Assembly (NCBI GenBank): GCA_965200865.1
Contig: CBDAVG010000002.1
Coordinates: forward strand, 1,746,712-1,810,711
Direction of reading: 5' to 3'
DNA: 64,000 bases
Origin: an uncultured candidatus Porisulfidus sp.
GTDB lineage: Bacteria; Pseudomonadota; Gammaproteobacteria; Poriferisulfidales; Oxydemutatoraceae
Part shown: piece after piece, positions 4,293-61,027 of the stretch
Position numbering within the stretch: the stretch's first letter is position 1
How the letters are laid out: each line of letters opens with the position of its first letter
Notes under the pieces: model-generated
Database searches by the model: none
The model's input: only the letters and a program-made list of their open reading frames with translations
Told to the model about the DNA's origin: nothing
Made by a program: the position numbers and the translations under genes

Positions 4293-4520
4293 GTGAATCA
4301 TCATAAAAAGGAGAAAATTATGGATATAGTTTATGAAGCACTTAAAAAAACAGGAATGACCGACAATGAAGCACATGAGGTTGCTTCAAAAATCAATAGG
4401 CAAGATGATTTAGCGACTAAGGCAGATTTAGCTGAGTTAAAGGCAGAGATATTTAAGATGCAATTTGTGATTGCTTTTTTGATTATTGCTGCGGTAGGAT
4501 TGATAATTAAATTTGTGTAG
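4293..4520 (+). CDS. DUF1640-like small coiled-coil protein with a C-terminal transmembrane helix
   Basis: LATKADLAELKAEI coiled-coil motif followed by a hydrophobic tail. It is a paralog of the ORF at 62525..62779. Confidence 0.6.
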   Translation: MNHHKKEKIMDIVYEALKKTGMTDNEAHEVASKINRQDDLATKADLAELKAEIFKMQFVIAFLIIAAVGLIIKFV

Positions 4521-4655
4521 TTACCGAACGCGTTGCGTCTGCACAAGGCAATTCCCCTCCTGTGGAGGGGTGGCAGGCGCAGCCTGATGGGGTGGTTGTG
4601 TCAGTTCTCCACAATGTTACGCCGATTGACCTACTGACTCAATCGGTGTTTTGAT
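4521..4655. repeat. REP-like repeat cluster 3
   Basis: Palindrome cccctcctgtggaggggtggcaggcgcagcctgatggggtgg plus a gccgattgacctactgactcaatcggtg hairpin. Confidence 0.75.
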
Positions 4656-5073
4656 TCAGATATTTACAATTTTTAGCAGTGCAGTCAACATACATCACCA
4701 AGGAATGGTCGGTGAGTGTAAAACCGTGTTTCTTGGCAATAGATTCTTGGCGTTTTTCTATGGTTTGATCAACGAATTCCACTATTCTACCGCACTGGGT
4801 ACAAACCATGTGGTCGTGATGTTCACCTCGGTTAATCTCATAACAGGCTTGTCCCTTTTGTAGATAGCGACGTAGTATCAGTCCGGATGCTTCAAATTGG
4901 GCAAGCACATTATAGATAGTTGCCAAACCGACATTCTCTCCCTTTAGGGTCAACTTGCGGTGTATATGCTCGGCGGTTACATGGCGAGAGTCTGCTCCCT
5001 CCATGATTTCCAGTATTTTGATTCGCGGCACCGTGACCTTAAGTCCTGCCCGTTTTATATCTTGCTGGTTCAT
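4639..5073 (-). CDS. fur: ferric uptake regulator
   Basis: Winged-helix N-terminus, HHDHMVCTQCGRIVEF metal-binding motifs, 144 aa, divergent from bamE as in other gammaproteobacteria. Confidence 0.9.
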   Translation of the reverse strand: MNQQDIKRAGLKVTVPRIKILEIMEGADSRHVTAEHIHRKLTLKGENVGLATIYNVLAQFEASGLILRRYLQKGQACYEINRGEHHDHMVCTQCGRIVEFVDQTIEKRQESIAKKHGFTLTDHSLVMYVDCTAKNCKYLNQNTD

Positions 5074-48868: not shown

Positions 48869-49582
48869 TTAGTAGTCTATCGCTCGGTTGACCCAGTCTT
48901 TGACTTTGCCGACTAATCCTCTGCTATCACCATTGCGTGAAGTTGCTTTTGGGTACTGTGGTGTGGGTTTAACTTCGCGTGGCGGTAAGTATTTGTTAAC
49001 TGGGTTATAGCCGAGCTCCGGCATCAGTTGTGATCCGCCGCGTTGGCGCGTCATTTTGGATACCTCTGAGTCGGGGTCGTCAAAATCTCCGAAAAAGCGG
49101 GCATGGGTAGGACATGTTAGGACACAGGCGGGTTGTCTTTCCTCTTCGGGTAATGCCTCATCGTATATACGGTCTATGCAAAGGGTGCATTTTTTCATAA
49201 CACCATCTTCCCGGTCCAACTCCCGTGCGCCGTAAGGACATGCCCAAGCACAGTAATTACAGCCCATACATTTCTCTTGGTCTACCAGTACGATGCCATC
49301 TTCGGGACGTTTATAAGATGCTCCCGTAGGACAGACTGTGACACAATCGGCATCCTCGCAGTGCATACACGACATCGGAAAATGTACCGTTTTACTATCT
49401 GGATAATCGCCTACCTCGTAATTTCGGATGCGATTGAACCATACGCCGGAGGGGTCTTTACCGTAAGGGTTATAGTCGGTGAGTGGTCCGGTCATACCCG
49501 AAGTGTTCCATTGTTTGCAAGCCACTGCGCACGCATTGCAACCTACACAGGTATCTAAATCTATTACTAATCCTAACTTCAT
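48869..49582 (-). CDS. soeB: 4Fe-4S ferredoxin-type electron-transfer subunit of a molybdoenzyme (DmsB/PsrB class), SoeB-like
   Basis: Four Cys clusters of the CxxCxxCxxxCP type (CVGCNAC..C, CMHCEDADC..C, CMGCNYCAWACP, CTLC). Its start overlaps the catalytic subunit stop by 4 bp. Confidence 0.75.
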   Translation of the reverse strand: MKLGLVIDLDTCVGCNACAVACKQWNTSGMTGPLTDYNPYGKDPSGVWFNRIRNYEVGDYPDSKTVHFPMSCMHCEDADCVTVCPTGASYKRPEDGIVLVDQEKCMGCNYCAWACPYGARELDREDGVMKKCTLCIDRIYDEALPEEERQPACVLTCPTHARFFGDFDDPDSEVSKMTRQRGGSQLMPELGYNPVNKYLPPREVKPTPQYPKATSRNGDSRGLVGKVKDWVNRAIDY

Positions 49583-52539
49583 TTGAATCCTCTGGTTATG
49601 ATGTCTTTGAAAGAACGTTTTAAGTGCACCGCCTTATGCGATTGGTAACGCAACGAGGTGTCCGCACCTTGCTGTGTCGATTTTATCTGCGGTTCGTAGA
49701 GCGGCTGCACACCGTCACCGCTTCCGTTTGCAGGACTGATTTTGACACATAAATCGTACCATGCCGCTTGCCCAGTGACAGGGTCGGAATTAGAGGCCGG
49801 ACGGTCATACAAATCTTTGGGCAACAATTCATCTATCAAATGGTTCAACAAAAATCCTTCGGTAGCCTCGTTGGCATCTTCGGATAACCCCCATGCGCCA
49901 CGCGCCTTGCCTATGGCGTTCCACGTCCATACGGTATTTTCTTGGATGCCTTCCATCAATTTTATCTGCACACGAATTTTAGCGTTGCGCGATTCCACCC
50001 ACACCCACGACAGATCCTCAATACCCATCTGTTCGGCACGCTTGCGGTTCATATAAAGAAAGTTTCTTGCAATGATTTGCCTGAGCCATGGGTTTTGTGA
50101 ATCCCACGAATGATACATCATCATCGGTCGTTGGGTAATCGCATAAAAAGGATAATCGCGACTGTCGTGCACCTGTGGTGTTTGCTCCAGTGGAATGTAG
50201 TGTGAAGGCAAAGGGGCGCAGAAGGTTTTGATGCGCTCCCGATCCTTTTGCTGTGGCGGTTGTGGTCCGTCGTATAAACCCATCGCTGCCAAACGGAATT
50301 TTTGCAAAGTCTCCGAATAAAGCTCTATCACAACGGGTTCGGAGCTTCCGTTAAAGCCAGCCTCTTTTGCAAACTCCAGATAGTCTTTGTTGGCAAAGCG
50401 GTAAAAGCGCATATGTTCGGGCAACTCGTAATGCAGAAAACATTTGTTTTCAATGTAGTTTTCCCATTGTTTGGGGTTGGGTTCGCCTCGCAAGTGCTTG
50501 CTTCCGTCTGCCCCACGCCAGCCTGCTAGAAAACCAATCCCCGGGGCCTTCTCAAAGTTGATTATAAAGTCTTTGTAGTCTTTATATTTGGCACTGCCGT
50601 CCTCGTTCAAGAATGCCGGGAATTTTAATCGGGATGCCAGTTCAACCATGACTTCTTGCCAGGGTCTTGCGTCGCGATCTGGTTCTAGTACCGGGGCGCG
50701 TATAGAGTCGCAAATGGCATCAGGATCCGAGATCGGTCTATCCAACAGCGATATAGTATCGTAGCGTTCCAAATAGGTTGTGTCGGGTAGAACCAAATCG
50801 GCAAATTGCACCATCTCCGAGTTAAACGCATCTATGACTACCAAAAACGGGATTTTATATTCTCCGTCGGCATCTTTGGCTTTGAGCATATCTTGTATCT
50901 TGGCAACATTCATCGTTGAATTCCAACTCATATTCGCCATAAACAGCATCAGAGTATCTATCGTATAAGGATCGCCATTGGCTGCATTTGTTATCACGGT
51001 GTGCATCAGCCCGTGGTTAGCCAAAGGTGCTTCCCATGAATAGGCTTTATCTATGCGCAAAGGCTGCCCTTTATCGTCAATGACCAAGTCCTCAGGACAA
51101 GTAGGGAACCCCAGCGGAGGTGCGGGAAGAGCTTCGCCAGCTTTGCTTTGCTGTGCGGGTTTAATCGGCGGAGGAATATGCTTAGGATAAGGTGGCTTAG
51201 CCCGATGCGCTCCGGGGCAATCTATAGCACCGAGTAAAATTTGCAAGAAATGAATCGCTCGGCAAGTTTGAAAACCATTGGAGTGTGCCGAAATACCGCG
51301 CATCGCATGCATAGATACCGGCCGCCCGATAAAGCTATCGTGTTTTCTTCCCGCACTATCAACCCATTGGCATGGCACTTCTATAGTCTCTTGGAAAGCG
51401 ATATGCGCCATTTCAAGTGCCAAACGCTCTATCGTGTCGGCACTGACACCACAAACGGCGGCGGCGTGTTCGGGTGCATATTTTTCATCAAGATACTGTT
51501 CGGCGAGTGTTGTGAATACGGTTTTCAATTTAATGCCTTCTTCGCTCTGATATTCACCAAACAATGCAGGCTGTGTGCCGCGCATCGCCGCCTCCGCAAC
51601 ACTTTCTGCCTTTAGATCCCATATATACGGTTTGCCCTCGGCGTTGCGATAAACCAAACCATCGTTGGAAGCACCCGGATTATTGATTAGCAAATAAGGC
51701 GCATTGGTATAACGAACTAAAAATTCCCAGTCAAACAATTCGTTTTTCAATAGCACATGCACCATAGATAAGGCTAGCATTGCATCGCTACCGGGAATGA
51801 TAGGAACCCACTCGTCGGCAATGGCTTGATAGCCGGTGCGCACCGGATTGATGGCAACAAACTTGCTTCCTCGTCGCTTGAGTTTCTCTAGACCGATTTT
51901 AATCGGGTTGGAGGCATGGTCTTCGGCAACCCCCCAAAGCATAAAATACTTGGTGCGATCCCAGTCCGGTTCGCCGAATTCCCAAAACGAATATCCCATC
52001 GTATACAAACCGCCGGCGGCCATATTTACTGAGCAGAAACCACCGTGGGCTGCCCAGTTGATTGTTCCAAACTGTTGCGCCCATAATCCAGTTAGTGCCT
52101 GCATTTGATCGCGACCAGTGAAATAAGCGAGCTTTTTAGGATCACTTTTTCTAATTTTATCAAGCCGCTCAGTCAGAATGTCCAGTGCCTTCTGCCAACT
52201 AATTTCTTCAAACTCTCCGCTACCTCTTTCTGCGGTTGCCTTGCGTAGCATGGGCTTTTTGAGCTTGGCAGGTGAGCACTGCTTCATGATGCCAGCGTTG
52301 CCTTTGGCACATAACACACCACGGTTCACCGGATGTTCACGGGTGCCTTGTATAAAACGAATTTTGTTATCTTCCAACGTCACCTTAATCCCGCAACGAC
52401 AGGCACACATATAGCAAGTTGTATGCTTTATCTGTTGTTTAGCGTGATCTTCAAAACAAGGTAAGTTGCCGTCTTCGGCGGTATCGCCTGCAATTACTTT
52501 ATCGGGCAATGATTGCTCTCCACTTAAATGATTATCCAA
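49579..52539 (-). CDS. soeA: molybdopterin (bis-MGD) oxidoreductase catalytic subunit with no Tat signal, SoeA-like; candidate sulfite dehydrogenase (quinone)
   Basis: N-terminal 4Fe-4S motif CYMCACRCG...(27 aa)...C of the MopB superfamily. 986 aa with no twin-arginine leader. The 986/237/312 aa three-gene architecture matches cytoplasm-facing SoeABC. Confidence 0.7.
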   Translation of the reverse strand: MDNHLSGEQSLPDKVIAGDTAEDGNLPCFEDHAKQQIKHTTCYMCACRCGIKVTLEDNKIRFIQGTREHPVNRGVLCAKGNAGIMKQCSPAKLKKPMLRKATAERGSGEFEEISWQKALDILTERLDKIRKSDPKKLAYFTGRDQMQALTGLWAQQFGTINWAAHGGFCSVNMAAGGLYTMGYSFWEFGEPDWDRTKYFMLWGVAEDHASNPIKIGLEKLKRRGSKFVAINPVRTGYQAIADEWVPIIPGSDAMLALSMVHVLLKNELFDWEFLVRYTNAPYLLINNPGASNDGLVYRNAEGKPYIWDLKAESVAEAAMRGTQPALFGEYQSEEGIKLKTVFTTLAEQYLDEKYAPEHAAAVCGVSADTIERLALEMAHIAFQETIEVPCQWVDSAGRKHDSFIGRPVSMHAMRGISAHSNGFQTCRAIHFLQILLGAIDCPGAHRAKPPYPKHIPPPIKPAQQSKAGEALPAPPLGFPTCPEDLVIDDKGQPLRIDKAYSWEAPLANHGLMHTVITNAANGDPYTIDTLMLFMANMSWNSTMNVAKIQDMLKAKDADGEYKIPFLVVIDAFNSEMVQFADLVLPDTTYLERYDTISLLDRPISDPDAICDSIRAPVLEPDRDARPWQEVMVELASRLKFPAFLNEDGSAKYKDYKDFIINFEKAPGIGFLAGWRGADGSKHLRGEPNPKQWENYIENKCFLHYELPEHMRFYRFANKDYLEFAKEAGFNGSSEPVVIELYSETLQKFRLAAMGLYDGPQPPQQKDRERIKTFCAPLPSHYIPLEQTPQVHDSRDYPFYAITQRPMMMYHSWDSQNPWLRQIIARNFLYMNRKRAEQMGIEDLSWVWVESRNAKIRVQIKLMEGIQENTVWTWNAIGKARGAWGLSEDANEATEGFLLNHLIDELLPKDLYDRPASNSDPVTGQAAWYDLCVKISPANGSGDGVQPLYEPQIKSTQQGADTSLRYQSHKAVHLKRSFKDIITRGFK

Positions 52540-52569: not shown

Positions 52570-53130
52570 AAAGCAAGGCGATATGGGGCTGTTGAAAAAA
52601 TATCCTTGAGCCGTAGAGGAGGGCTAACATGGGACTGTTGAAAAAGTGTCTGCATTAGTACATTCCCCTCCTGTGGAGGGGTGGCAGGCGAAGCCTGACG
52701 GGGTGGTTGTGGTGGTTCTGCACAAAGTCACGCCGTTTGTGCTACTGCAACAAACGGCGGTTCTATTTTTCAACAGCCTCACATGCCCTCCCTAAAGTAC
52801 CGTTCTGCACCAGGAGAACCGCTTGCGCCACTTGGTTTTGGTTCCCATAAATTGGATGGCGTACGAAGGATAATGTACGACAAGCAACCATGTTGAGGTT
52901 CTGCACAATGTCACGCCGATTGATTTTGATATATGTGATGTTTTTAACGAACACAGCATTTAGATTTTGCACAAAGTTACGCCACTTGACCTACTGGCTC
53001 AAGTGGCGGGTTCACTCGGCGATAATCGGCGATTCTACTTGTGCAGACGCAACGCGTTTCGGGAGGGCATGTTAGCCCTCCCCTACCAGTTGCGAGACTT
53101 TTTCAACAACCTCGACATGAGTTACCCGTG
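52570..53130. repeat. REP-like repeat cluster 15
   Basis: Multiple units: ggagggctaacatgggactgttgaaaaagtg, cccctcctgtggaggggtggcaggcgaagcctgacggggtgg, a cgccgtttgtgctactgcaacaaacggcgg hairpin and cacttgacctactggctcaagtggcgg. Confidence 0.85.
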
Positions 53131-53165
53131 CATAAGACGAGGATTTTCTGCATAGATTATTGCAG

Positions 53166-53597
53166 TCATCTAGGCGCAATCGTGTCGGGTACGCAACAGG
53201 CACTTTCGGCTTCCTGCACATCGTCCGAAAATATCTGTGCGTCTGCCATCGTGTGATAGGTTTCCCACACAATGCCGTTAGGGTCTTCTATCCATGACTT
53301 TTCAGACTTGGCGTAGCAACAAGTCGTTTCACCATCTCCGTATGTGCTGATATCGGCAGCCTCCATACGGGAACGCATCGCCTCCAACTCCTCGGTATGT
53401 TCGGTTTGAATACCCAAATGGTTAATGCTCTTTTTGTTTGAACGAGTAGAGATAGCAAAATTGACACGCGGGTCATCCAACATCCATTTTGCATAGTCCG
53501 ATTTGACTTTACTCGGCTCTGCACCAAACAAAGTAGAGTAAAACTTCACACTTTTGTCTATGTCTTCCACACCAACGTGGATATGTATACGCTTCAT
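53166..53597 (-). CDS. ArsI/CadI-family VOC (glyoxalase-fold) protein; possible organoarsenical C-As lyase
   Basis: Aligns with ArsI: MKRIHIHVGVEDIDKSVKFYSTLFGAEP...HLGIQ... and the vicinal Cys pair TTCCYAKSEKSWIEDPNGIVWETY. A second CC lies near the C-terminus. Confidence 0.7.
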   Translation of the reverse strand: MKRIHIHVGVEDIDKSVKFYSTLFGAEPSKVKSDYAKWMLDDPRVNFAISTRSNKKSINHLGIQTEHTEELEAMRSRMEAADISTYGDGETTCCYAKSEKSWIEDPNGIVWETYHTMADAQIFSDDVQEAESACCVPDTIAPR

Positions 53598-53643
53598 AAA
53601 TATCTCCTTTTATCGTGGTTGATAACAAACAATATCAAGATAG

Positions 53644-53717
53644 GATAGACGACAGGGCTTGAACCCATAGTCTCAGGAACCACAATCGTGCGCTCCATCA
53701 ACCGAACTACGCCTACC
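53644..53717 (-). tRNA. tRNA-His (GTG) with G-1:C73
   Basis: The reverse complement G|GTAGGCG TA GTTC GGTTGATG GAGC G CACGA TTGTGGT TCCTG AGACT ATGGG TTCAAGC CCTGT CGTCTAT C folds as a cloverleaf. All stems pair (several G-U wobbles), the anticodon is GUG, and the extra 5' G pairs with discriminator C, the hallmark of tRNA-His. The 3' end reads CCTA rather than CCA. Confidence 0.6.
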
Positions 53718-53888: not shown

Positions 53889-54704
53889 TTAGCTTTCTGT
53901 TGTAGTTTGATCACTTTCCTTGTTAATCCGAGGCGCATCCTTGTATGCTGTAGAAAGGTTCCAGAGAGAAAAATTTATTATTTGGCTATAAGGCATAATA
54001 AGCCCCGCTTCTTCTCCAAGCTCTTCTTTACTGAATACCGGATATCTATCAGTCCAATCAACTTTTCTTCGCTCATCTCTATATCCACTAATAATAGGCA
54101 CTATTTTAATTGCAGGTTCAATTCTTGAACTTTTTGTGTAATCAACTAATAGCCCAACATATACTTTGCGGTTACTCAATGTAACAAATATAAGTTTTCT
54201 ATGCCAAGAATAACAACAATTGTGAAATGTACTAGGTGTTGGATCATCAAAATAATTATTCCTGATCCAGGCAGAGAACCAACCTAATGCTGCAGAAAGA
54301 ATAATAGAAAAGAATAATTGAAGAAGCTCGTGAAACCATTGTTGTTTAGGAAAAATGTCTATTAAAACATAGTATGGTATCGCAAAAAACACCACCGCAA
54401 AAAGATATTCCCAGCCTTCTAATTGATAGTAGTTCCGGTTTATATATCTATTTATAGATCTGTTATAAAACCAGAGACCTACTATAGAAAGAATAACGGA
54501 AAAGAACAATTGAAGAAGTTCGTAAAACCATTTTTGTTTAGGGAAAACGTCTATTAAAACATAGTATGGTATCGCAAAAAACACCACCGCAAAAAGATAT
54601 TCCCAGCCTTCTAATTGGTAGTACTTCCGATTTATAGATCTGTTATAAAGCGAGAGACCTACTATGCCTGGAACAACCCAAATTAATAACTCTATATCAA
54701 ACAT
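53889..54704 (-). CDS. membrane protein with an internal tandem duplication and a soluble C-terminal domain of unknown function, in an AT-rich island
   Basis: 271 aa. The segment YNRSINR..YYQLEGWEYLFAVVFFAIPYYVLID.FPKQ.WF.ELLQLFFS.ILS occurs twice, with near-identical DNA. Confidence 0.6.
   Translation of the reverse strand: MFDIELLIWVVPGIVGLSLYNRSINRKYYQLEGWEYLFAVVFFAIPYYVLIDVFPKQKWFYELLQLFFSVILSIVGLWFYNRSINRYINRNYYQLEGWEYLFAVVFFAIPYYVLIDIFPKQQWFHELLQLFFSIILSAALGWFSAWIRNNYFDDPTPSTFHNCCYSWHRKLIFVTLSNRKVYVGLLVDYTKSSRIEPAIKIVPIISGYRDERRKVDWTDRYPVFSKEELGEEAGLIMPYSQIINFSLWNLSTAYKDAPRINKESDQTTTES
54296..54700. repeat. intragenic direct tandem duplication (2 copies, ~195-205 bp each, >90% identical) inside CDS 53889..54704
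   Basis: Both copies carry the same run of about 80 bp, gtctattaaaacatagtatggtatcgcaaaaaacaccaccgcaaaaagatattcccagccttctaattg. Confidence 0.8.
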
Positions 54705-54869
54705 TGAAAGTTATGTGTCATGTATCTACCAGACTTATGTCCAAAATCTATGCGTTTTTACAGAAAATACTGCTTTTTATAAGTGGTAGCAGTGTAAGGG
54801 ATTTTTTAGAAACTAAAACTATTTCTTAATTCATGGTGTTGAATCAAGGAATATAGAGAAAATAATTAT

Positions 54870-55145
54870 TTATTTACCTCCCTGACTATCAGGTATTAAT
54901 TTTTGAACTTCTTCTATTGCCGCTCTATTCTCTTCAATGATCTCACTGATTGGGCGAGGAATTTCGCCATAAGTTCCTTCAATGTGCATGATTTTATTAA
55001 ACCATCCCTTTTCTTTTTTCTTGGACACCTCCTCTATTATCCCCTCATAGGATTTTGTTTCAATAAGCTTACCCTCTTTATTAGCATCGCGGTAAGTTTC
55101 ATCCGAAGGGTCAACATTAAATTGGTCATTTATTTGGTAACTCAT
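54870..55145 (-). CDS. hypothetical 91 aa protein; candidate toxin partner (PanT-like) of the upstream Panacea-domain antitoxin
   Basis: Begins 4 bp after the stop of the Panacea-domain gene on the same strand. Sequence is charged and helical with no recognisable toxin motif. Confidence 0.45.
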   Translation of the reverse strand: MSYQINDQFNVDPSDETYRDANKEGKLIETKSYEGIIEEVSKKKEKGWFNKIMHIEGTYGEIPRPISEIIEENRAAIEEVQKLIPDSQGGK

Positions 55146-55148
55146 TTT

Positions 55149-55610
55149 CTATCCTTTTGCTTTATCCTTCAATTCACAAAAGTGATTTTTAATCACACTT
55201 TCGGGGATAGCTCTCCGAGGGAGCTTTTCACCTTTATATGTTTTATGCCATGGCGATCCTCTCTTATGAGTTAGAGCAGATAGTTCTACTCCTTTGTATT
55301 TTTTGTAATGATTTACTACAGCATTCACTAATTCTTTCATATCATCAGAAAAGTTAGCATCTTTATCGTTTGCAAGACCTTCAAGGCAATTAGAAGACAA
55401 TGAGCTGTCTTTATGCTTGAGCGCATAATATAGCTCTGGGATTACCGGGCCGTATCTCCACGCTTCAATATTCTCTCTAAATAATATTTCGTCATGGTAG
55501 GTTAAATACCACCCATACGATAAGTAGCACAGCTTGATTAGCTGCAATAAATCAAATCCTTCGTCGCGTTTTAATATATGATTTGCAACATTAAATACTG
55601 TCGTAGTCAT
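55149..55610 (-). CDS. Panacea-domain (DUF4065) antitoxin, SocA/PanA-like
   Basis: DLLQLIKLCYLSYGWYLTYHDEILFRENIEAWRYGPVIPELYYALK matches the DUF4065 core (KLqKLlY...gw.L.......lf.e.feAW.yGPV.p.lY). Confidence 0.7.
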   Translation of the reverse strand: MTTTVFNVANHILKRDEGFDLLQLIKLCYLSYGWYLTYHDEILFRENIEAWRYGPVIPELYYALKHKDSSLSSNCLEGLANDKDANFSDDMKELVNAVVNHYKKYKGVELSALTHKRGSPWHKTYKGEKLPRRAIPESVIKNHFCELKDKAKG

Positions 55611-56059
55611 TGCCAGTCGGTACTTCTAAAAAAAATGACAGATGTCTCCTTCCGAGACTACTGCCGGTAATGTTCAATTTATTAGTTTTTCTATATTTGA
55701 GTTTATTTGCCGGCTGTTTTAATTACTACTTGAAGTGTTGCCAGCTTTAATAGATTTATGTGTTGATATTATTATTATTATTTTGATTTGTTCTCTTTTA
55801 ATTAAATTTTTCATCTTGTTTCTCCGTAAGTAGTCATCTTAGGGTCTCTATATTGATAGGATTATAAGGCCTCTCAATATACTAATTTGTTCAAGATGTA
55901 AGGTTATTATGATTCGCACATTATGTCAAGGATTATTATGCGGGATGGCCTAATAATTTTCAATGAAAATGCACTGCATGTGGCCTATAAATGTTTGTAT
56001 ACAGGCTGTTTTTTTTATCATCGCCCGAAATTTGAGGGAAACTAATTATCATGCATTTT

Positions 56060-56135: not shown

Positions 56136-56249
56136 AGGAGGGAAATGGCAATGGGGCGGCGGCTGAGGTAAGCACCCAACATGCGTGGGAAAGGGAGTTG
56201 TATCTTGAATAATGCCAGATACATATTGGACTCTTTAGAACCTAATCTT

Positions 56250-56279
56250 CCCGCTAGAAAAAGTACTTTTTCTAGCGGG
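56250..56279. repeat. perfect 30 nt palindrome (13 bp stem, GTAC centre) upstream of the IS481-family transposase
   Basis: cccgctagaaaaagtactttttctagcggg. It could be a hairpin terminator or insulator, or the IS end. Confidence 0.5.
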
Positions 56280-56308
56280 AAAACCCTCAAAAAATCAAGG
56301 TAGATAAC

Positions 56309-57354
56309 ATGAAATATCAACACCTCGGCTATCGCATTAAAGGGTTTTATAAAATAGCCTCTTTTGCTAATAAGTGGGAGGCTATGATGGCAACTGATGC
56401 TAAACAAAAACTTGAGGCTTTAGAGTTCTGGAAAAACATGGTTTAATTGCGGCTCTGGACTTTTCTAAGGTGAGCCGTGCGACCCTATATCTCTGGAGAA
56501 AGCACTTTGACGAGGGCGGCGTGTCGGCTTTGCAGGATGCAAGTAAAGCACCTCACCAGCACCGCCGTCGCAATTGGTCTACTCGCATCACTGACGAGAT
56601 TAGACGACTGCGATACAGCTATCCCAATATGGGTGCTCCGAAGATTTATTACTTCTTAAAGCCGTGGTGCGATGAACGAGGATTGAAGTGTCCGAAGCCT
56701 CGCACCATCGTACGATTGATTGCCGATGCACCCGATAAAATGCGCTGCTCACCGCCGACTATCTCTGGCAAAACACGCAAAAGCAAGGCTTCTAAGCCAC
56801 GCGATCGTATTGACAAAGATGCCAAAGCCCTATTTCCTGGAAACTGCGTGGCTATAGACACCATCCATTATTTCGTTGAGCAAACCCGCTATTATCTGTT
56901 TACTGCGATTGATCACTACAGCCGTTTTGCCATGGCTATCACGTGCCGACGTGCAAGCAGTAAAAATGCTGTGGCATTTGCAAAGTTGGTGCATATGGTA
57001 TTCCCTGACAACATCTCTCAGGTATTGACTGATAACGGCAGCAAGTTTCAGGGAGACTTCGATGCTTATCTACAACAACATAACATTAAACACTGTTATA
57101 CTTATCCTCGTTGCCCGAAAATGAATGCCATAGACGAGAGATTTAACCGCACTATTCAAGAGGAGTTTGTCGCACATAATGTGGATATTCTAGAGAAAGA
57201 TTTAGCATTGTTTAACGACGTATTATTTGAATATCTTGGGCGGTATAACTTCAGAAGACCGCACCAAAGCCTAGGCTATAAAACACCGGCACAACAGCTT
57301 GCTTCTTTTTGCCCTTATTTGTCTAATATGTCATGGCATCGTACATATCTTTGA
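56309..57354 (+). mobile_element. IS481-family transposase gene with a -1 frameshift at a GGAAAAAC run (~56440), either inactivated or recoded
   Basis: The N-terminal piece 56309..56446 (HTH: ...DAKQKLEALEFWK) continues in the -1 frame into ORF 56470..57354, whose integrase core has a DDE catalytic region including TDNGSKFQG. Confidence 0.75.
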
Positions 57355-57456: not shown

Positions 57457-59307
57457 ATGTCGAAACTTTATTTCAGGGTCGGTCCAATGGAGGGATTTAC
57501 CGGAAGTGACTTAGCAGATAAAAAAGAAGGCTATACAAATCCAATTAGAGAGTTGCTGCAAAATGCTCTAGATGCTTCCCACGAAGCACATAATAATGAG
57601 TGTAAAGTAAATATATACATTGAAACAATCTCGGCTCATCAAATACCGCATATTAAAGAATATAAAGAGGTCTTGCGTAAAGCCATTGAAACAGCAGAAA
57701 AACAAGGCAGTTATAATGAAAACTCAAAGCAAAGGGTGGCACTCATTAAAGAGGCTCTACACAAAGAAAAGCTAAAAGTCTTGTTGTTTGCCGATGACGG
57801 TATAGGAATGGAACAAAATCGTTTGGATGCCATACTGACCGGAGGCGTTAGTATTAAAGGCGATGAAAAATCAGGTGGTTCTTTCGGGGTGGGCAACTTA
57901 TCCAGCTATTCACTCTCATCGCTGTGCTATGTGCTTTATGCTACCAAGTATAAGGACAACGGTGCTACAAAAACATTGTTTACTGGTTCACCAATTTTAG
58001 CCGGGCATCAAGATGGAGAAACTCAGCGAGTCAAAAGAGGTAGGATTGTAGCAAAGGAGCCTAAAGATCCAGTGAATCCAAAGTTCACTTATCTCAACGA
58101 TCCTCCCCCTTTTATCAAACCTAAGATGCGTGAATTTAATACTGGCACCATCATAGCCATTCTAGGTTTGTCCGAAGATTGGAATGAGGATGCCGAATAC
58201 GCCATCGTTAGCAACTTCTTCCATGCTATTCCCTATGGTCATTTAAGCATTACCATCCATAAGAACGGTAGTTCAGAGAAAATCTCTTATGCTCGAGTTG
58301 AACAACTAATCAGTAGAAAAAAAGAGGGTAAAAGAGCAATGGGAGACAACATACTATCCGGCAAAACAGTCTTTCAAGCATGGCAGACGCTTCAAGAACA
58401 AGGCTCACAAAAAACCATTGAGCTTAGCAATGCGGATAAAGTTTGTGTTTTTATTAAAAACGACAAAAGCACCAATTCCGCTATCATACTGGTTAGGAAC
58501 GGGATGGTCGTCGCTCGCCATGACTCTATGTTATCTGTGGACATAGACAGGCTAAGAAAAGACACCGATTTTGAGCCTTTTACTGCGATTATTGATATTG
58601 ATAAAAAAGATGCCCCGGAGTTGTTTCGGCTGGTGAAAAATGCCGAAGGCCCGTATCACAATAAGTTGCAGAAAGGTGTGCTGATTAAAAAAGATGAAAA
58701 AGAACTGAAAAAACTACTAAAAGAATTAAGTGAGAAGATAAAGGAAGGTTACCTGAAAAAAATAGAGAGAGATTCTTTCAATTTGCCGTTGTTCACCATC
58801 CCTAGCGAAGCCCAAGAAAATGCCGGCGGTGTCAAAAAATCAGATGGGCAAGTAGAAGAGGCTTCGCCAGCACCTGGATCAAAGAAACCACCCAAACCTC
58901 AAAAGGAGCAAGTAGCGAGAGAAGATAGCGGAAACAACTCCGCACCCACTGTTATTTCCAGAGTGCTGGAGTCAAAGACTGCCGCTAGATATACAGAAAA
59001 TGGCAGCATATGGGAAGTGCAATTAAGAATTACTCCCACACAACAAGAAAATGATAAAGACAATGCCTACTTGTCAATAGGTTTAGGGGATGATAGCGAT
59101 GGCGAGCAATGCACCTACCTTGACTTCATAACAGCCGAATTGAACGGCGATAAAATTGAGATTTTTTATGACAATAAAAAGCAGATTAAATTGGGTTCGT
59201 TAAGCAAAGATACACAATACGATGTGGTCGCAAAAATCAAAAAACCGAATGATATCGGAGATGTGAAAGTGGCATTGCAACCACTGCTAGGGTTGAAACG
59301 ACGCTGA
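57457..59307 (+). CDS. GHKL/Bergerat-fold ATPase (HATPase_c_3, MORC/MutL-like N-terminal domain) with coiled-coil middle and unknown C-terminal domain; first gene of a 3-gene cassette
   Basis: Motif I ELLQNALDA, motif II FADDGIGME, motif III GGSFGVGN; 616 aa. Confidence 0.75.
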   Translation: MSKLYFRVGPMEGFTGSDLADKKEGYTNPIRELLQNALDASHEAHNNECKVNIYIETISAHQIPHIKEYKEVLRKAIETAEKQGSYNENSKQRVALIKEALHKEKLKVLLFADDGIGMEQNRLDAILTGGVSIKGDEKSGGSFGVGNLSSYSLSSLCYVLYATKYKDNGATKTLFTGSPILAGHQDGETQRVKRGRIVAKEPKDPVNPKFTYLNDPPPFIKPKMREFNTGTIIAILGLSEDWNEDAEYAIVSNFFHAIPYGHLSITIHKNGSSEKISYARVEQLISRKKEGKRAMGDNILSGKTVFQAWQTLQEQGSQKTIELSNADKVCVFIKNDKSTNSAIILVRNGMVVARHDSMLSVDIDRLRKDTDFEPFTAIIDIDKKDAPELFRLVKNAEGPYHNKLQKGVLIKKDEKELKKLLKELSEKIKEGYLKKIERDSFNLPLFTIPSEAQENAGGVKKSDGQVEEASPAPGSKKPPKPQKEQVAREDSGNNSAPTVISRVLESKTAARYTENGSIWEVQLRITPTQQENDKDNAYLSIGLGDDSDGEQCTYLDFITAELNGDKIEIFYDNKKQIKLGSLSKDTQYDVVAKIKKPNDIGDVKVALQPLLGLKRR

Positions 59308-59328: not shown

Positions 59329-60198
59329 GTGTCAGATAATCTAATACTTGATTTTCCGATTCTAAGAGAGGACAGCAGTGATTTCCCGGCAACAATCGCT
59401 TACGAGGTCAAAGCCGAACAAAGCAACGGAAAACTACACCTAAGACACAGCCTCAAAGGTCGTTCATTTATTTCTCGTTTGCTGGAGCAAGGCAAAGCTA
59501 AATTTTCCGTTAGATTGCTTTACAAAGATAGTTTCGAGCGACAACATCACTTGTGTGACGAAAGCATCCTGCCCATGCAAGAGGGAATCATAGCCATCAC
59601 GCAAACCATACCAATGGACTTTTCTTATGCTCCAGAAGTTATGCCCAGCATTATCGTTTTGGAGGATGTGAAAGTCACCGTGGATGCTTCATCAGGGTTG
59701 ACTGATTTCTGGAGACCAGGCGAGTCCTTTTTCATACCTAGATATGCCCGCATTGCCATAGAGCCGAAATTAACCTTCTCTAAAGGCGATGTATATCATT
59801 TGATGAAACTAGAGCATGACGAAGACCTCGACAGCGGAGAGATGAGAGTGGAAGTCAACGAATATGCCGGAGAGGGTGAGATTCCCGTGTCCTTGCTATG
59901 TGGTAGCGATGTTTATGATCAACTAATAAAAGCCTCCCCAACAGAACCAAGAGACTCCAACCAGTCAATGGGTTCGGCTATCGCTACTCAAGCATTGTGT
60001 GCCACTTATGCATATATACACAATTTAGAACCCGACAATAAAGACGAAGTTGGCGGCGTGCTATTGAACCATCTGCAGATGTTAGAAGAGAACACCAGAC
60101 AAGACTGGAAAGATGAAGACTTCAACCCAAGTCTAGCTGCTACGAAAATGAATCCCTATGTCTTGCGTGTATTCAAAGCAGGATCCGATGATGAGTGA
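59329..60198 (+). CDS. hypothetical protein (289 aa), second gene of the GHKL cassette
   Basis: Starts 21 bp after the GHKL gene stop on the same strand and has codon usage similar to its neighbours; no known motif. Confidence 0.6.
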   Translation: MSDNLILDFPILREDSSDFPATIAYEVKAEQSNGKLHLRHSLKGRSFISRLLEQGKAKFSVRLLYKDSFERQHHLCDESILPMQEGIIAITQTIPMDFSYAPEVMPSIIVLEDVKVTVDASSGLTDFWRPGESFFIPRYARIAIEPKLTFSKGDVYHLMKLEHDEDLDSGEMRVEVNEYAGEGEIPVSLLCGSDVYDQLIKASPTEPRDSNQSMGSAIATQALCATYAYIHNLEPDNKDEVGGVLLNHLQMLEENTRQDWKDEDFNPSLAATKMNPYVLRVFKAGSDDE

Positions 60199-61027
60199 AT
60201 ACAGAAAACTTGATGAAAAAGTTTGGGGAGATTTTGGTAAGAAGCTAAACAAGAACAAAGGCTCGGAGGAGCAAAGAGAATTTCTCAGTGCTTGTAAATC
60301 AGGGAAAGATGATTTCCTGACATATCTTAAGCATAATAACTTGTCGGATAGTACTAACAAAGGTGAGCCAGTGAGCTTTATGTACCGATTTACTGAGAGA
60401 GAGTTCATCTACCCGCCTTACGATACTCAGGAAAAAATCTGGCAAGCGTTTAAGGAGCTACCCGATGAAGTAACATGCAGGTGTGGTTTCTGGGGATATG
60501 TGATTATCAAAATGATTGAGGATGGGCAGATCCAACCGTCTTATTTGGCATCGGAATCTAGTGACGCGAATAGCACAGGTAGTTATATGATTTACAATGC
60601 CCTAACATCCGCTGATACAGAAGAAATAGACGGTTGTGTTAGAAGGAGCTTACGCGCCATGTGCAATCCGGCACCAAGAGGGAAAAAGATCGTATTCAAT
60701 GACTTTTATCTCGGAAAGACTTACTGGCGATGGCGGTGGGCGCATAAAATGTCCGACATTATGGAGCCTGACCTCACACTAGAAATTCTGGATGAAAAAT
60801 ATTATGCTAGGGTTTCTGAAAAAATGCATAGCGGGAAAAGCTATATAAGCTCAAAAAACATATTCGGTGGACTATTGCTGTTCCTTGAAAAAAACAGAGA
60901 AGTTGGCAAGGAAAAATTGAAAGCAATCATTGACCAAATTGGATACCTGAGCGTATGGAAAGCACTTGAAGCACAAACCCCACAATCTAACCAAAAAGAA
61001 ATAGAAAAAATAGCCGAGCGGCTGTAA
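60189..61027 (+). CDS. hypothetical protein (~279 aa), third gene of the GHKL cassette
   Basis: Its start ATGATGAGTGA overlaps the stop of the preceding gene, indicating translational coupling. It contains a CRCGFWGY Cys pair and no known motif. Confidence 0.6.

Follow-up and report, generated by a model that had tools for sequence, protein, structure and literature searches.

Gene content and conservation of the panA locus

The stretch of 64,000 nucleotides (nt) analysed here, the window, comes from an uncultured Candidatus (Ca.) Porisulfidus sp. of the gammaproteobacterial family Oxydemutatoraceae (assembly GCA_965200865.1, contig CBDAVG010000002.1, positions 1,746,712 to 1,810,711), and contains on its minus strand a locus of three genes: panA, encoding a standalone Panacea protein, a small gene encoding an acidic protein of 91 amino acids (aa), and a gene for a membrane protein with a predicted Sm-like domain (Table 1). 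Panacea (DUF4065) proteins are known from the PanA/PanT type II toxin-antitoxin (TA) systems (Kurata et al. 2022, PMC8832971; Ernits et al. 2023, PMC10440598), and an original prediction, made from the letters of the window, had proposed a PanA/PanT module of two genes with the 91 aa protein as the toxin. Comparison with related loci indicates that panA, the small gene and the membrane gene make up one conserved co-directional unit, a PanA-associated TA-like module with two undescribed partner families. The standalone Panacea gene and the gene pair of the original prediction are thus retained, the role of toxin being less likely for the 91 aa protein than for the product of the third gene.

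The PanA proteins most similar to that of the window (63-80% identity) define a subclade of nine loci, namely the window itself, L001-L006, L017 and L018. In all nine, panA is followed by a homologue of the small gene coding for 90-97 aa, the two genes overlapping by 4 nt or lying up to 32 nt apart, and 35-170 nt beyond this second gene lies the membrane gene or its pseudogene or remnant, as detected by tblastn and hidden Markov model (HMM) scans. Under the neighbourhood criteria of PMC8832971 (a partner at no more than 100 nt, at least two species and at most three genes) the nine loci are PanAT-like, the spacer to the third gene of the window being longer than 100 nt. No terminator is predicted on the minus (coding) strand, this spacer included. 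HMM scans of 80 more distant PanA loci (30-41% identity) found neither partner family, and the association of this PanA subclade with them is therefore specific. Moreover, an HMM of the alignment of long (PanA-linked) and short forms of the small protein recovers loci L017-L021, which were outside the model, with E-values from 1e-10 to 1e-18 (3.8e-10 for L020/L021). All three genes are under purifying selection, with ratios of non-synonymous to synonymous divergence (dN/dS, or omega) of 0.1-0.45. None of the three proteins has a match in PADLOC-DB v2, and neither they nor their aligned homologues match the SpoIIS family in Pfam at E-values up to 1, which places them outside that family. Both partner families are tiny and, as far as the sequences retrieved indicate, confined to sponge-symbiont Gammaproteobacteria, the hosts being uncultured sponge-associated members of Ca. 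Porisulfidus and Ca. Oxydemutatoraceae.

The DUF4065 core that had been read in the panA product is confirmed by an hmmsearch-type comparison, in which the protein aligns with the full SocA_Panacea model PF13274 (profile positions 1-113 of 113) at 68.8 bits and E 9.8e-19, well above the Pfam gathering cut-off of 25.7. The core motif that had been quoted for it is also present, although its actual letters are IEAWRYGPVIPELY and not FEAW...., and both open reading frames (ORFs) lie on the minus strand as predicted, with 3 nt (AAA) between the TAG of panA and the ATG of the small gene. The PanA protein also matches phrog_1281 of PHROGs (E 2.6e-36); against the SocA equivalog of NCBIfam, NF047745, it scores 67 bits, below the cut-off of 190 bits, and hence falls outside the SocA type VI antitoxins as defined by that model. 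The motifs AW(R/K)YGPV and SALTH of the core are invariant across the subclade, the dN/dS values of the gene (0.12-0.45) reveal purifying selection, and a word-indexed search of 5.8e9 proteins gave 27 relatives at 50% identity or more. A fusion of PanA with the small protein was looked for and none was found, the longer PanA homologues (176-208 aa) being extended at the N-terminus and not at the C-terminus. Read-through of the panA stop codon into the small ORF was also considered and rejected, since L005, L006 and L017 have the two genes in different frames, unlike the window and L001-L004, where the frame is shared.

The 91 aa ORF, whose AAGGA Shine-Dalgarno sequence sits within the 3′ end of panA, is on comparative grounds a real gene, because its homologues follow PanA in every related locus and its dN/dS values indicate purifying selection (0.14-0.31 among close loci, and 0.58-0.75 in two comparisons with the diverged copy of the window). 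Its relatives are scarce: only four were found in the word-indexed search of 5.8e9 proteins, and a profile search of 1.84e9 proteins reduced the family, long and short forms together, to just seven cluster representatives. The protein gave nothing significant in Pfam, NCBIfam, PADLOC, PHROGs or the PDB sequences, the latter searched also with profiles, and a VAPB_antitox match (E 0.049) in one of 11 family members was taken as chance. It shows a pI of 4.8, a grand average of hydropathy of -0.95 and 35% of charged residues, with no hydrophobic or transmembrane (TM) segment, and its AlphaFold2 (AF2) model, built with 11 sequences, has a predicted local distance difference test score (pLDDT) of 57.7 and a predicted template modelling score of 0.23. 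Only a helix at residues 66-83 is moderately confident in this model, in which most of the protein is predicted to be disordered.

Two regions can be told apart in the small protein. The conserved core, W..EGTYGE.P.P..EII......IE.VQK.I, is common in the alignments to the short forms of 59-72 aa described below, while the N-terminal extension of about 40 aa is seen only in PanA-linked loci. Though predicted to be unstructured, the extension keeps the short motifs M-x-Y-Q-I and KE-x-x-L-I-x-N-x-x-Y across very divergent members, a pattern typical of linear binding regions. Constraint is stronger on the C-terminal core than on the extension, the latter having diverged unusually fast in the lineage of the window. 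In one long-form relative, P0069 (128 aa), the motif of the extension is internally duplicated.

The canonical homologues of the membrane protein have three TM helices and about 205-224 aa. Relative to all the aligned homologues, the protein of the window contains an insertion of 60-64 aa due to an in-frame tandem duplication (Table 1), unique to this genome, which turns the three TM helices into five; by the positive-inside rule, hydropathy-based topology keeps the Sm-like domain in the cytoplasm. The fact that the duplication has aged without any frameshift suggests that the altered protein is still under selection, and the dN/dS values of the membrane gene are 0.25-0.40. The AF2 model of a 74%-identical homologue, P0053, consists of three TM helices, then a further helix and a bent sheet of five strands (pLDDT 69.5), and the top 50 Foldseek matches of this model in the PDB are all Sm/LSm proteins or Sm-containing small nuclear ribonucleoprotein or spliceosome structures (probability 1.0, E around 1e-3, TM-score to the target of at most 0.74), from which the C-terminal domain is predicted to be Sm-like. 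The best match of the model in BFVD is an uncharacterised phage protein of equal length, and the C-terminal domain matches phrog_3630 (E 1e-10).

The membrane protein is also rare, with 13 relatives in a large protein database. Searches with its alignment returned only four loci from GTDB genomes, JGI metagenomes and IMG/VR yielding nothing, and tblastn against phage and plasmid records gave no match. The family does not reach the threshold of DUF6338 (PF19865), which appears below it in five of 11 members (best E 0.052; scores of 11.3 and 11.7 bits against 26.5), so that a distant relationship is possible as judged from these profile matches. A channel of the MscS type, which also combines three TM helices with an Sm-like fold, was considered and discarded: no match to the MS_channel HMM was found at E-values up to 1, and only a fold-level analogy remains.

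Table 1. Position and description of the features of the panA locus and its surroundings in the window.
Feature	Position	Strand	Description
panA	55149..55610	(-)	153 aa standalone Panacea/DUF4065 protein, no additional domain, pI 8.6
Small gene	54870..55145	(-)	91 aa acidic protein; residues 1 to ~41 N-terminal extension, ~42-91 conserved core
Spacer between small and membrane genes	54705..54869	(-)	165 nt; ~80% identical across the window and L001-L004
Membrane gene	53889..54704	(-)	271 aa, five predicted TM helices, cytoplasmic Sm-like beta-barrel domain (predicted); candidate toxin/effector
In-frame tandem duplication	54294..54644	(-)	inside the membrane gene; 192-nt copies 92% identical, plus a 12-nt micro-duplication
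Promoter	55902..55930	(-)	sigma-70-like: TTGACA, spacer, CATAAT; upstream of panA; function from consensus alone
Leader insertion	~55615..55890 (approximate limits)	(-)	AT-rich, ~240 nt, between promoter and panA start
tRNA-His (GTG)	53643..53716	(-)	directly downstream of the module; ARAGORN, Rfam 36.1 bits
Glyoxalase-like ORF	53166..53597		housekeeping flank
Short-ORF region	52600..53300	both	many overlapping short ORFs with repetitive-looking motifs (e.g. FSTVPC, VTLCRT)
Molybdopterin oxidoreductase	49579..52539		986 aa; housekeeping flank
Palindrome	56248-56281		perfect, 17 nt
Insertion sequence (IS)-type transposase	56470..57354	(+)	rve integrase core and helix-turn-helix, E 1e-13
PDC-M33A-like gene	57457..59307	(+)	616 aa GHKL-type ATPase-like protein; PADLOC candidate defence PDC-M33A, E 5.8e-27
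Two ORFs	59329..60198 and 60158..61027	(+)	289 aa each; no PADLOC match

Loci without PanA and decay of the membrane gene

Membrane proteins more distantly related to that of the window (34-44% identity) are encoded in loci that lack PanA, namely L007, L008, L010-L012/L014, L016, L020 and L021, where the absence was judged within the sequence available, up to 4-5 kb. In these loci an ORF of 59-72 aa, uncalled in L010-L012, lies 35-60 nt upstream of the membrane gene, and these short forms correspond in the alignment to residues 42-91 of the small protein of the window, with G57, T58, Y59, I70 and Q81 invariant. The same relationship is recovered by a profile made from the long forms alone, which finds the short forms P0067 (E 8.7e-6) and P0070 (E 6.4e-4) among 1.84e9 proteins. 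Because short forms homologous to the core precede the membrane family in the absence of PanA, the ancestral conserved pair would be that of the small protein and the membrane protein, and not that of PanA and the small protein.

PanA and the N-terminal extension, in turn, occur together, in 9/9 of the long-form loci with upstream sequence versus none of the short-form loci. In the membrane-protein tree the PanA-linked and the short-form loci fall into two clades with bootstrap values of 98-100%, and due to this clean separation the state with PanA and the extension would have arisen, or been lost, a single time. Both have since been kept together while synonymous divergence reached saturation (dS above 1).

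Some particularities of the short-form loci can also be mentioned. In L008 the small gene is tandemly duplicated (4493-4953; copies of 72 and 65 aa). In three lineages the short-form pair adjoins a full-length hipA kinase-toxin gene, in both orders (L007 3384-5672; L016 2334-4642; L010-L012 4754-6953). The hipA gene of L010-L012 starts 40-49 nt past the membrane gene with no hipB visible, and that of L007 is preceded by a frameshifted remnant of a hipB-like helix-turn-helix protein.

The membrane gene is intact in the window, where it is duplicated, and in L001, L003 (with a GTG start and uncalled), L005 and L018. In the other PanA-linked loci it has been broken independently, by two 1-nt deletions in L002, a 16-nt deletion in L004, a frameshift plus a stop in L006 and a nonsense mutation in L017. 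A further case is L013 (4001-4640; Ca. Porisulfidus OZ241323.1), syntenic with the window beside the 986 aa oxidoreductase gene, in which the membrane pseudogene has two in-frame stops and an OmpA-like gene stands in place of panA and the small gene; the same genome holds an intact short-form pair (L016). Among the short-form loci the membrane gene is intact in all, a contrast (4/9 PanA-linked versus 0/8 short-form pseudogenes) that is small and drawn from loci that are not phylogenetically independent. The repeated inactivation seen in L002, L004, L006, L017 and L013 fits a costly effector being purged.

Genomic surroundings

The window and L001-L004 share the conserved sequence of the putative panA promoter, CTTGACATAA...TCATAAT. 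In the latter four the leader insertion is missing and the promoter sits about 85 nt from the ATG. The insertion has no further copy within the window, and holds a possible ORF of 31 aa (MKNLIKREQIK...) with a GGAG site. At the other end of the module, the tRNA-His is the only RNA element detected in the Rfam search, and marks the edge of a low-GC islet, the module having 33-35% GC versus 44-50% in its flanks. Housekeeping genes follow on this side, a glyoxalase-like ORF and a large molybdopterin oxidoreductase gene, and the region between them is filled with short overlapping ORFs whose motifs are comparable to others found in L010 (7070-7730), which may point to a repeat family dispersed in these symbiont genomes.

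Upstream of the panA promoter region, and between it and a gene whose product is similar to the PADLOC candidate defence protein PDC-M33A, lies a transposase gene with a palindrome just upstream of it; two ORFs of equal size come after the PDC-M33A-like gene (Table 1). The latter gene is also found divergently upstream of panA in L003, L004 and L006. Between the window and L006 the PDC-M33A-like protein is 81% identical, PanA 64% and the small protein 32%, a contrast suggesting that a conserved defence gene adjoins a cassette that evolves fast or can be exchanged, or else that the two are functionally linked.

Possible mechanism, alternatives and related systems

The arrangement of these genes may correspond to a tripartite module, in which the membrane protein would be the toxin (or effector), the small protein would neutralise it or serve as an adaptor, and PanA, sitting on the N-terminal handle of the small protein, would act as stabiliser or sensor, a reading to which we give somewhat less than an even chance. 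It starts from gene order, homology, co-occurrence, purifying selection and the predicted folds and disorder, and from these we infer the toxicity, the two bindings and the direction of the regulation. The membrane protein (three TM helices in its canonical form and five in the window, with a cytoplasmic Sm-like domain) would inhibit growth, and the small protein would use its last 50 aa, which include the GTYGE motif and an amphipathic helix, to bind and restrain the cytoplasmic domain. The extension of about 40 aa would then be the handle by which the standalone PanA binds the small protein, acting in trans either to stabilise the neutraliser or as a sensor of the trigger. Such an arrangement could be regarded as a 'split' multidomain PanA, where the Panacea domain offers the platform and an attached linear element carries out the neutralisation. 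In its most detailed form, the proposal is that PanA holds in trans the handle of a disordered antitoxin that restrains an undescribed, possibly ring-forming, membrane effector with three TM helices and an Sm-like domain, which is a tentative idea that we consider rather unlikely to hold in full.

Some of these elements have counterparts in described systems. Membrane proteins are a major class, and the commonest one, among the validated PanTs, and standalone Panacea proteins have been predicted to grasp an unstructured N-terminal region and a short helix of their partners (PMC8832971; PMC10440598). Ernits et al. 2023 proposed that Panacea is a sensor or platform in those cases where a separate element neutralises, as in multidomain PanAs (PMC10440598). 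On the side of the effector, the SpoIISA/SpoIISB(/C) systems contain a toxin with three TM helices and a cytoplasmic domain that is neutralised by a small natively disordered protein (PMC3057836, PMC4926146).

Several observations weigh against the tripartite reading. The co-occurrence of PanA and the extension would reflect a single evolutionary event followed by co-retention, and not many independent associations, and the membrane protein is taken to be toxic on account of its architecture. The Sm-like assignment relies on modest Foldseek E-values (around 1e-3), and the AF2 models were built on only 11 sequences, so that the disorder called for the small protein may partly reflect a shallow alignment. 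PanA and the small gene have also stayed intact in the four loci, out of nine with PanA, whose membrane gene is a pseudogene, and the comparison of two of them, L002 and L004, gives omega values of 0.27 for panA and 0.18 for the small gene, part of the divergence perhaps predating the lesions. This retention after the loss of the membrane gene is easier to explain by a self-sufficient, addictive pair of PanA and the small protein; alternatively, it could correspond to an orphan antitoxin kept against paralogous copies in the same genomes.

A pair of this kind corresponds to the original prediction, which did not consider the membrane gene. The panA product and its 91 aa partner would constitute a complete type II PanA/PanT system on their own, the partner being a new soluble toxin, and the membrane gene would be accessory (or dispensable) or, where PanA is missing, an alternative neutraliser of the short forms. 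The two genes are found together in all nine loci, with a tight and probably translationally coupled juxtaposition (gaps of 3-4 nt or an ATGA overlap in 4/5 lineages), a basic PanA is paired with an acidic small protein within the group of the window, and the maintenance of both genes, intact and under purifying selection, in the four loci with a broken membrane gene is the best argument for their self-sufficiency. The integrity of the membrane gene in all the PanA-less loci would also fit a need for it there and its dispensability beside PanA, though the pseudogene contrast is small and its loci non-independent. On the other hand, the conserved part of the small protein is precisely the part common to loci without PanA, next to the membrane protein, and the toxin or enzyme domain or TM helices that would be expected in a PanT are missing from a protein predicted to be largely unstructured. 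This profile fits, by analogy, antitoxins or adaptors such as SpoIISB better than the known PanTs, which are enzymes or TM peptides. We know of no precedent for a membrane protein acting as the antitoxin of a soluble toxin. Furthermore, only 9/25 of the PanA-adjacent candidates tested were toxic (PMC8832971). A self-contained pair is thus unlikely in our estimation, and the assignment of the toxin to the 91 aa ORF was probably misplaced because the third gene had been overlooked.

Another possibility, quite improbable in view of the data, is that of a two-part effector of the abortive-infection type, in which the small protein activates or senses for the membrane protein and PanA, as the antitoxin, holds the N-terminal extension. 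The charged soluble part and the TM part of a PanT would be in this case separate polypeptides, as in a split PanT, and the short-form pairs, with no obvious third (antitoxin) gene, resemble many two-gene defence systems; the position in a low-GC islet, with a candidate defence gene resembling PDC-M33A, an IS and a tRNA as neighbours, would also be in keeping with it. However, none of the three proteins is matched in PADLOC, the data do not separate activation from inhibition of the membrane protein by the small protein, and the retention of PanA and the small gene after the loss of the membrane gene is left unexplained.

The last alternative, a non-toxic cassette of unrelated function, perhaps from a phage (an Sm-like protein anchored in the membrane and two small partner proteins), that drifts and decays in reduced genomes of sponge symbionts, would agree with the tiny and taxonomically confined families, with the frequency of pseudogenes, in-frame duplication and IS elements around these loci, with the many DUF4065 proteins that are merely 'phage-associated proteins' of unknown role (phrog_1281, phrog_3630) and with the failure of 16/25 predicted PanAT pairs to be validated (PMC8832971), but it is likewise improbable given the purifying selection on the three genes and an architecture, a genomic-island context and hipA or restriction-modification neighbours that are typical of TA or defence cassettes. 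To our knowledge, Panacea has been found experimentally only as an antitoxin or sensor domain.

If the tripartite reading were true, Panacea would regulate here an antitoxin rather than a toxin, and two new protein families would be added, a small protein with a GTYGE motif and a membrane effector with three TM helices and an Sm-like domain; if the original prediction were right, the 91 aa ORF would encode a soluble toxin of an unusual, disordered kind. In any case, all known examples of the system come from uncultured sponge symbionts, and the roles assigned to its components are all inferential. The hyperpromiscuity of Panacea, and whether it serves for the neutralisation of toxins or the sensing of triggers, is an open question (PMC10440598), for which these loci offer a natural comparison between a clade with the small protein and the membrane protein alone and a sister clade that adds PanA and the N-terminal handle. 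With the same effector and neutraliser core in the presence and absence of PanA, the 'split' design, if real, would give a direct handle on the proposed role of Panacea as a sensor.

The module is similar to PanA/PanT systems in that a standalone Panacea gene comes first, its partner lies a few nt downstream and is conserved across species, and a gene for a membrane protein is present in the operon. It differs from them in that the gene beside panA is not toxin-like and has a core common to PanA-less two-gene modules, the likely toxin being the third gene, 165 nt further on, and in that neither partner belongs to any described family or is found in 80 other PanA loci. In the published three-gene PanA clusters the third gene is only sporadic, whereas here it would be the ancestral partner. 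The resemblance to SpoIISA-SpoIISB-SpoIISC of Bacillus (PMC3057836, PMC4926146) concerns the toxin, with three N-terminal TM helices and a cytoplasmic domain (predicted in our case), as well as the neutraliser, since SpoIISB, of about 56 aa, is a hydrophilic and natively disordered protein that binds the cytoplasmic domain and can be likened to the small protein described here. Even the occasional duplication of the small gene has a parallel, SpoIISB/SpoIISC in Bacillus and the two copies in L008. Unlike SpoIIS, there is no sequence homology, the cytoplasmic domain is predicted to be Sm-like and not GAF-like, the small gene comes first, a Panacea gene is added, and the hosts are gammaproteobacterial.

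With respect to the role proposed for PanA, a parallel can be drawn with the toxin-antitoxin-chaperone (TAC) systems, such as HigBA1-SecB(TA) of M. tuberculosis, where the antitoxin has an extension, present only with the third gene, through which the third protein acts on it. In contrast to TAC, Panacea is not a SecB-like chaperone, the extension is N-terminal, and both the gene order and the type of toxin are different. Finally, SocA of the SocA/SocB type VI TA system has the same Panacea domain, although there is no SocB-like partner at the locus of the window. SocA hands its partner to a protease, which indicates that Panacea proteins can be adaptors and not simple blockers.

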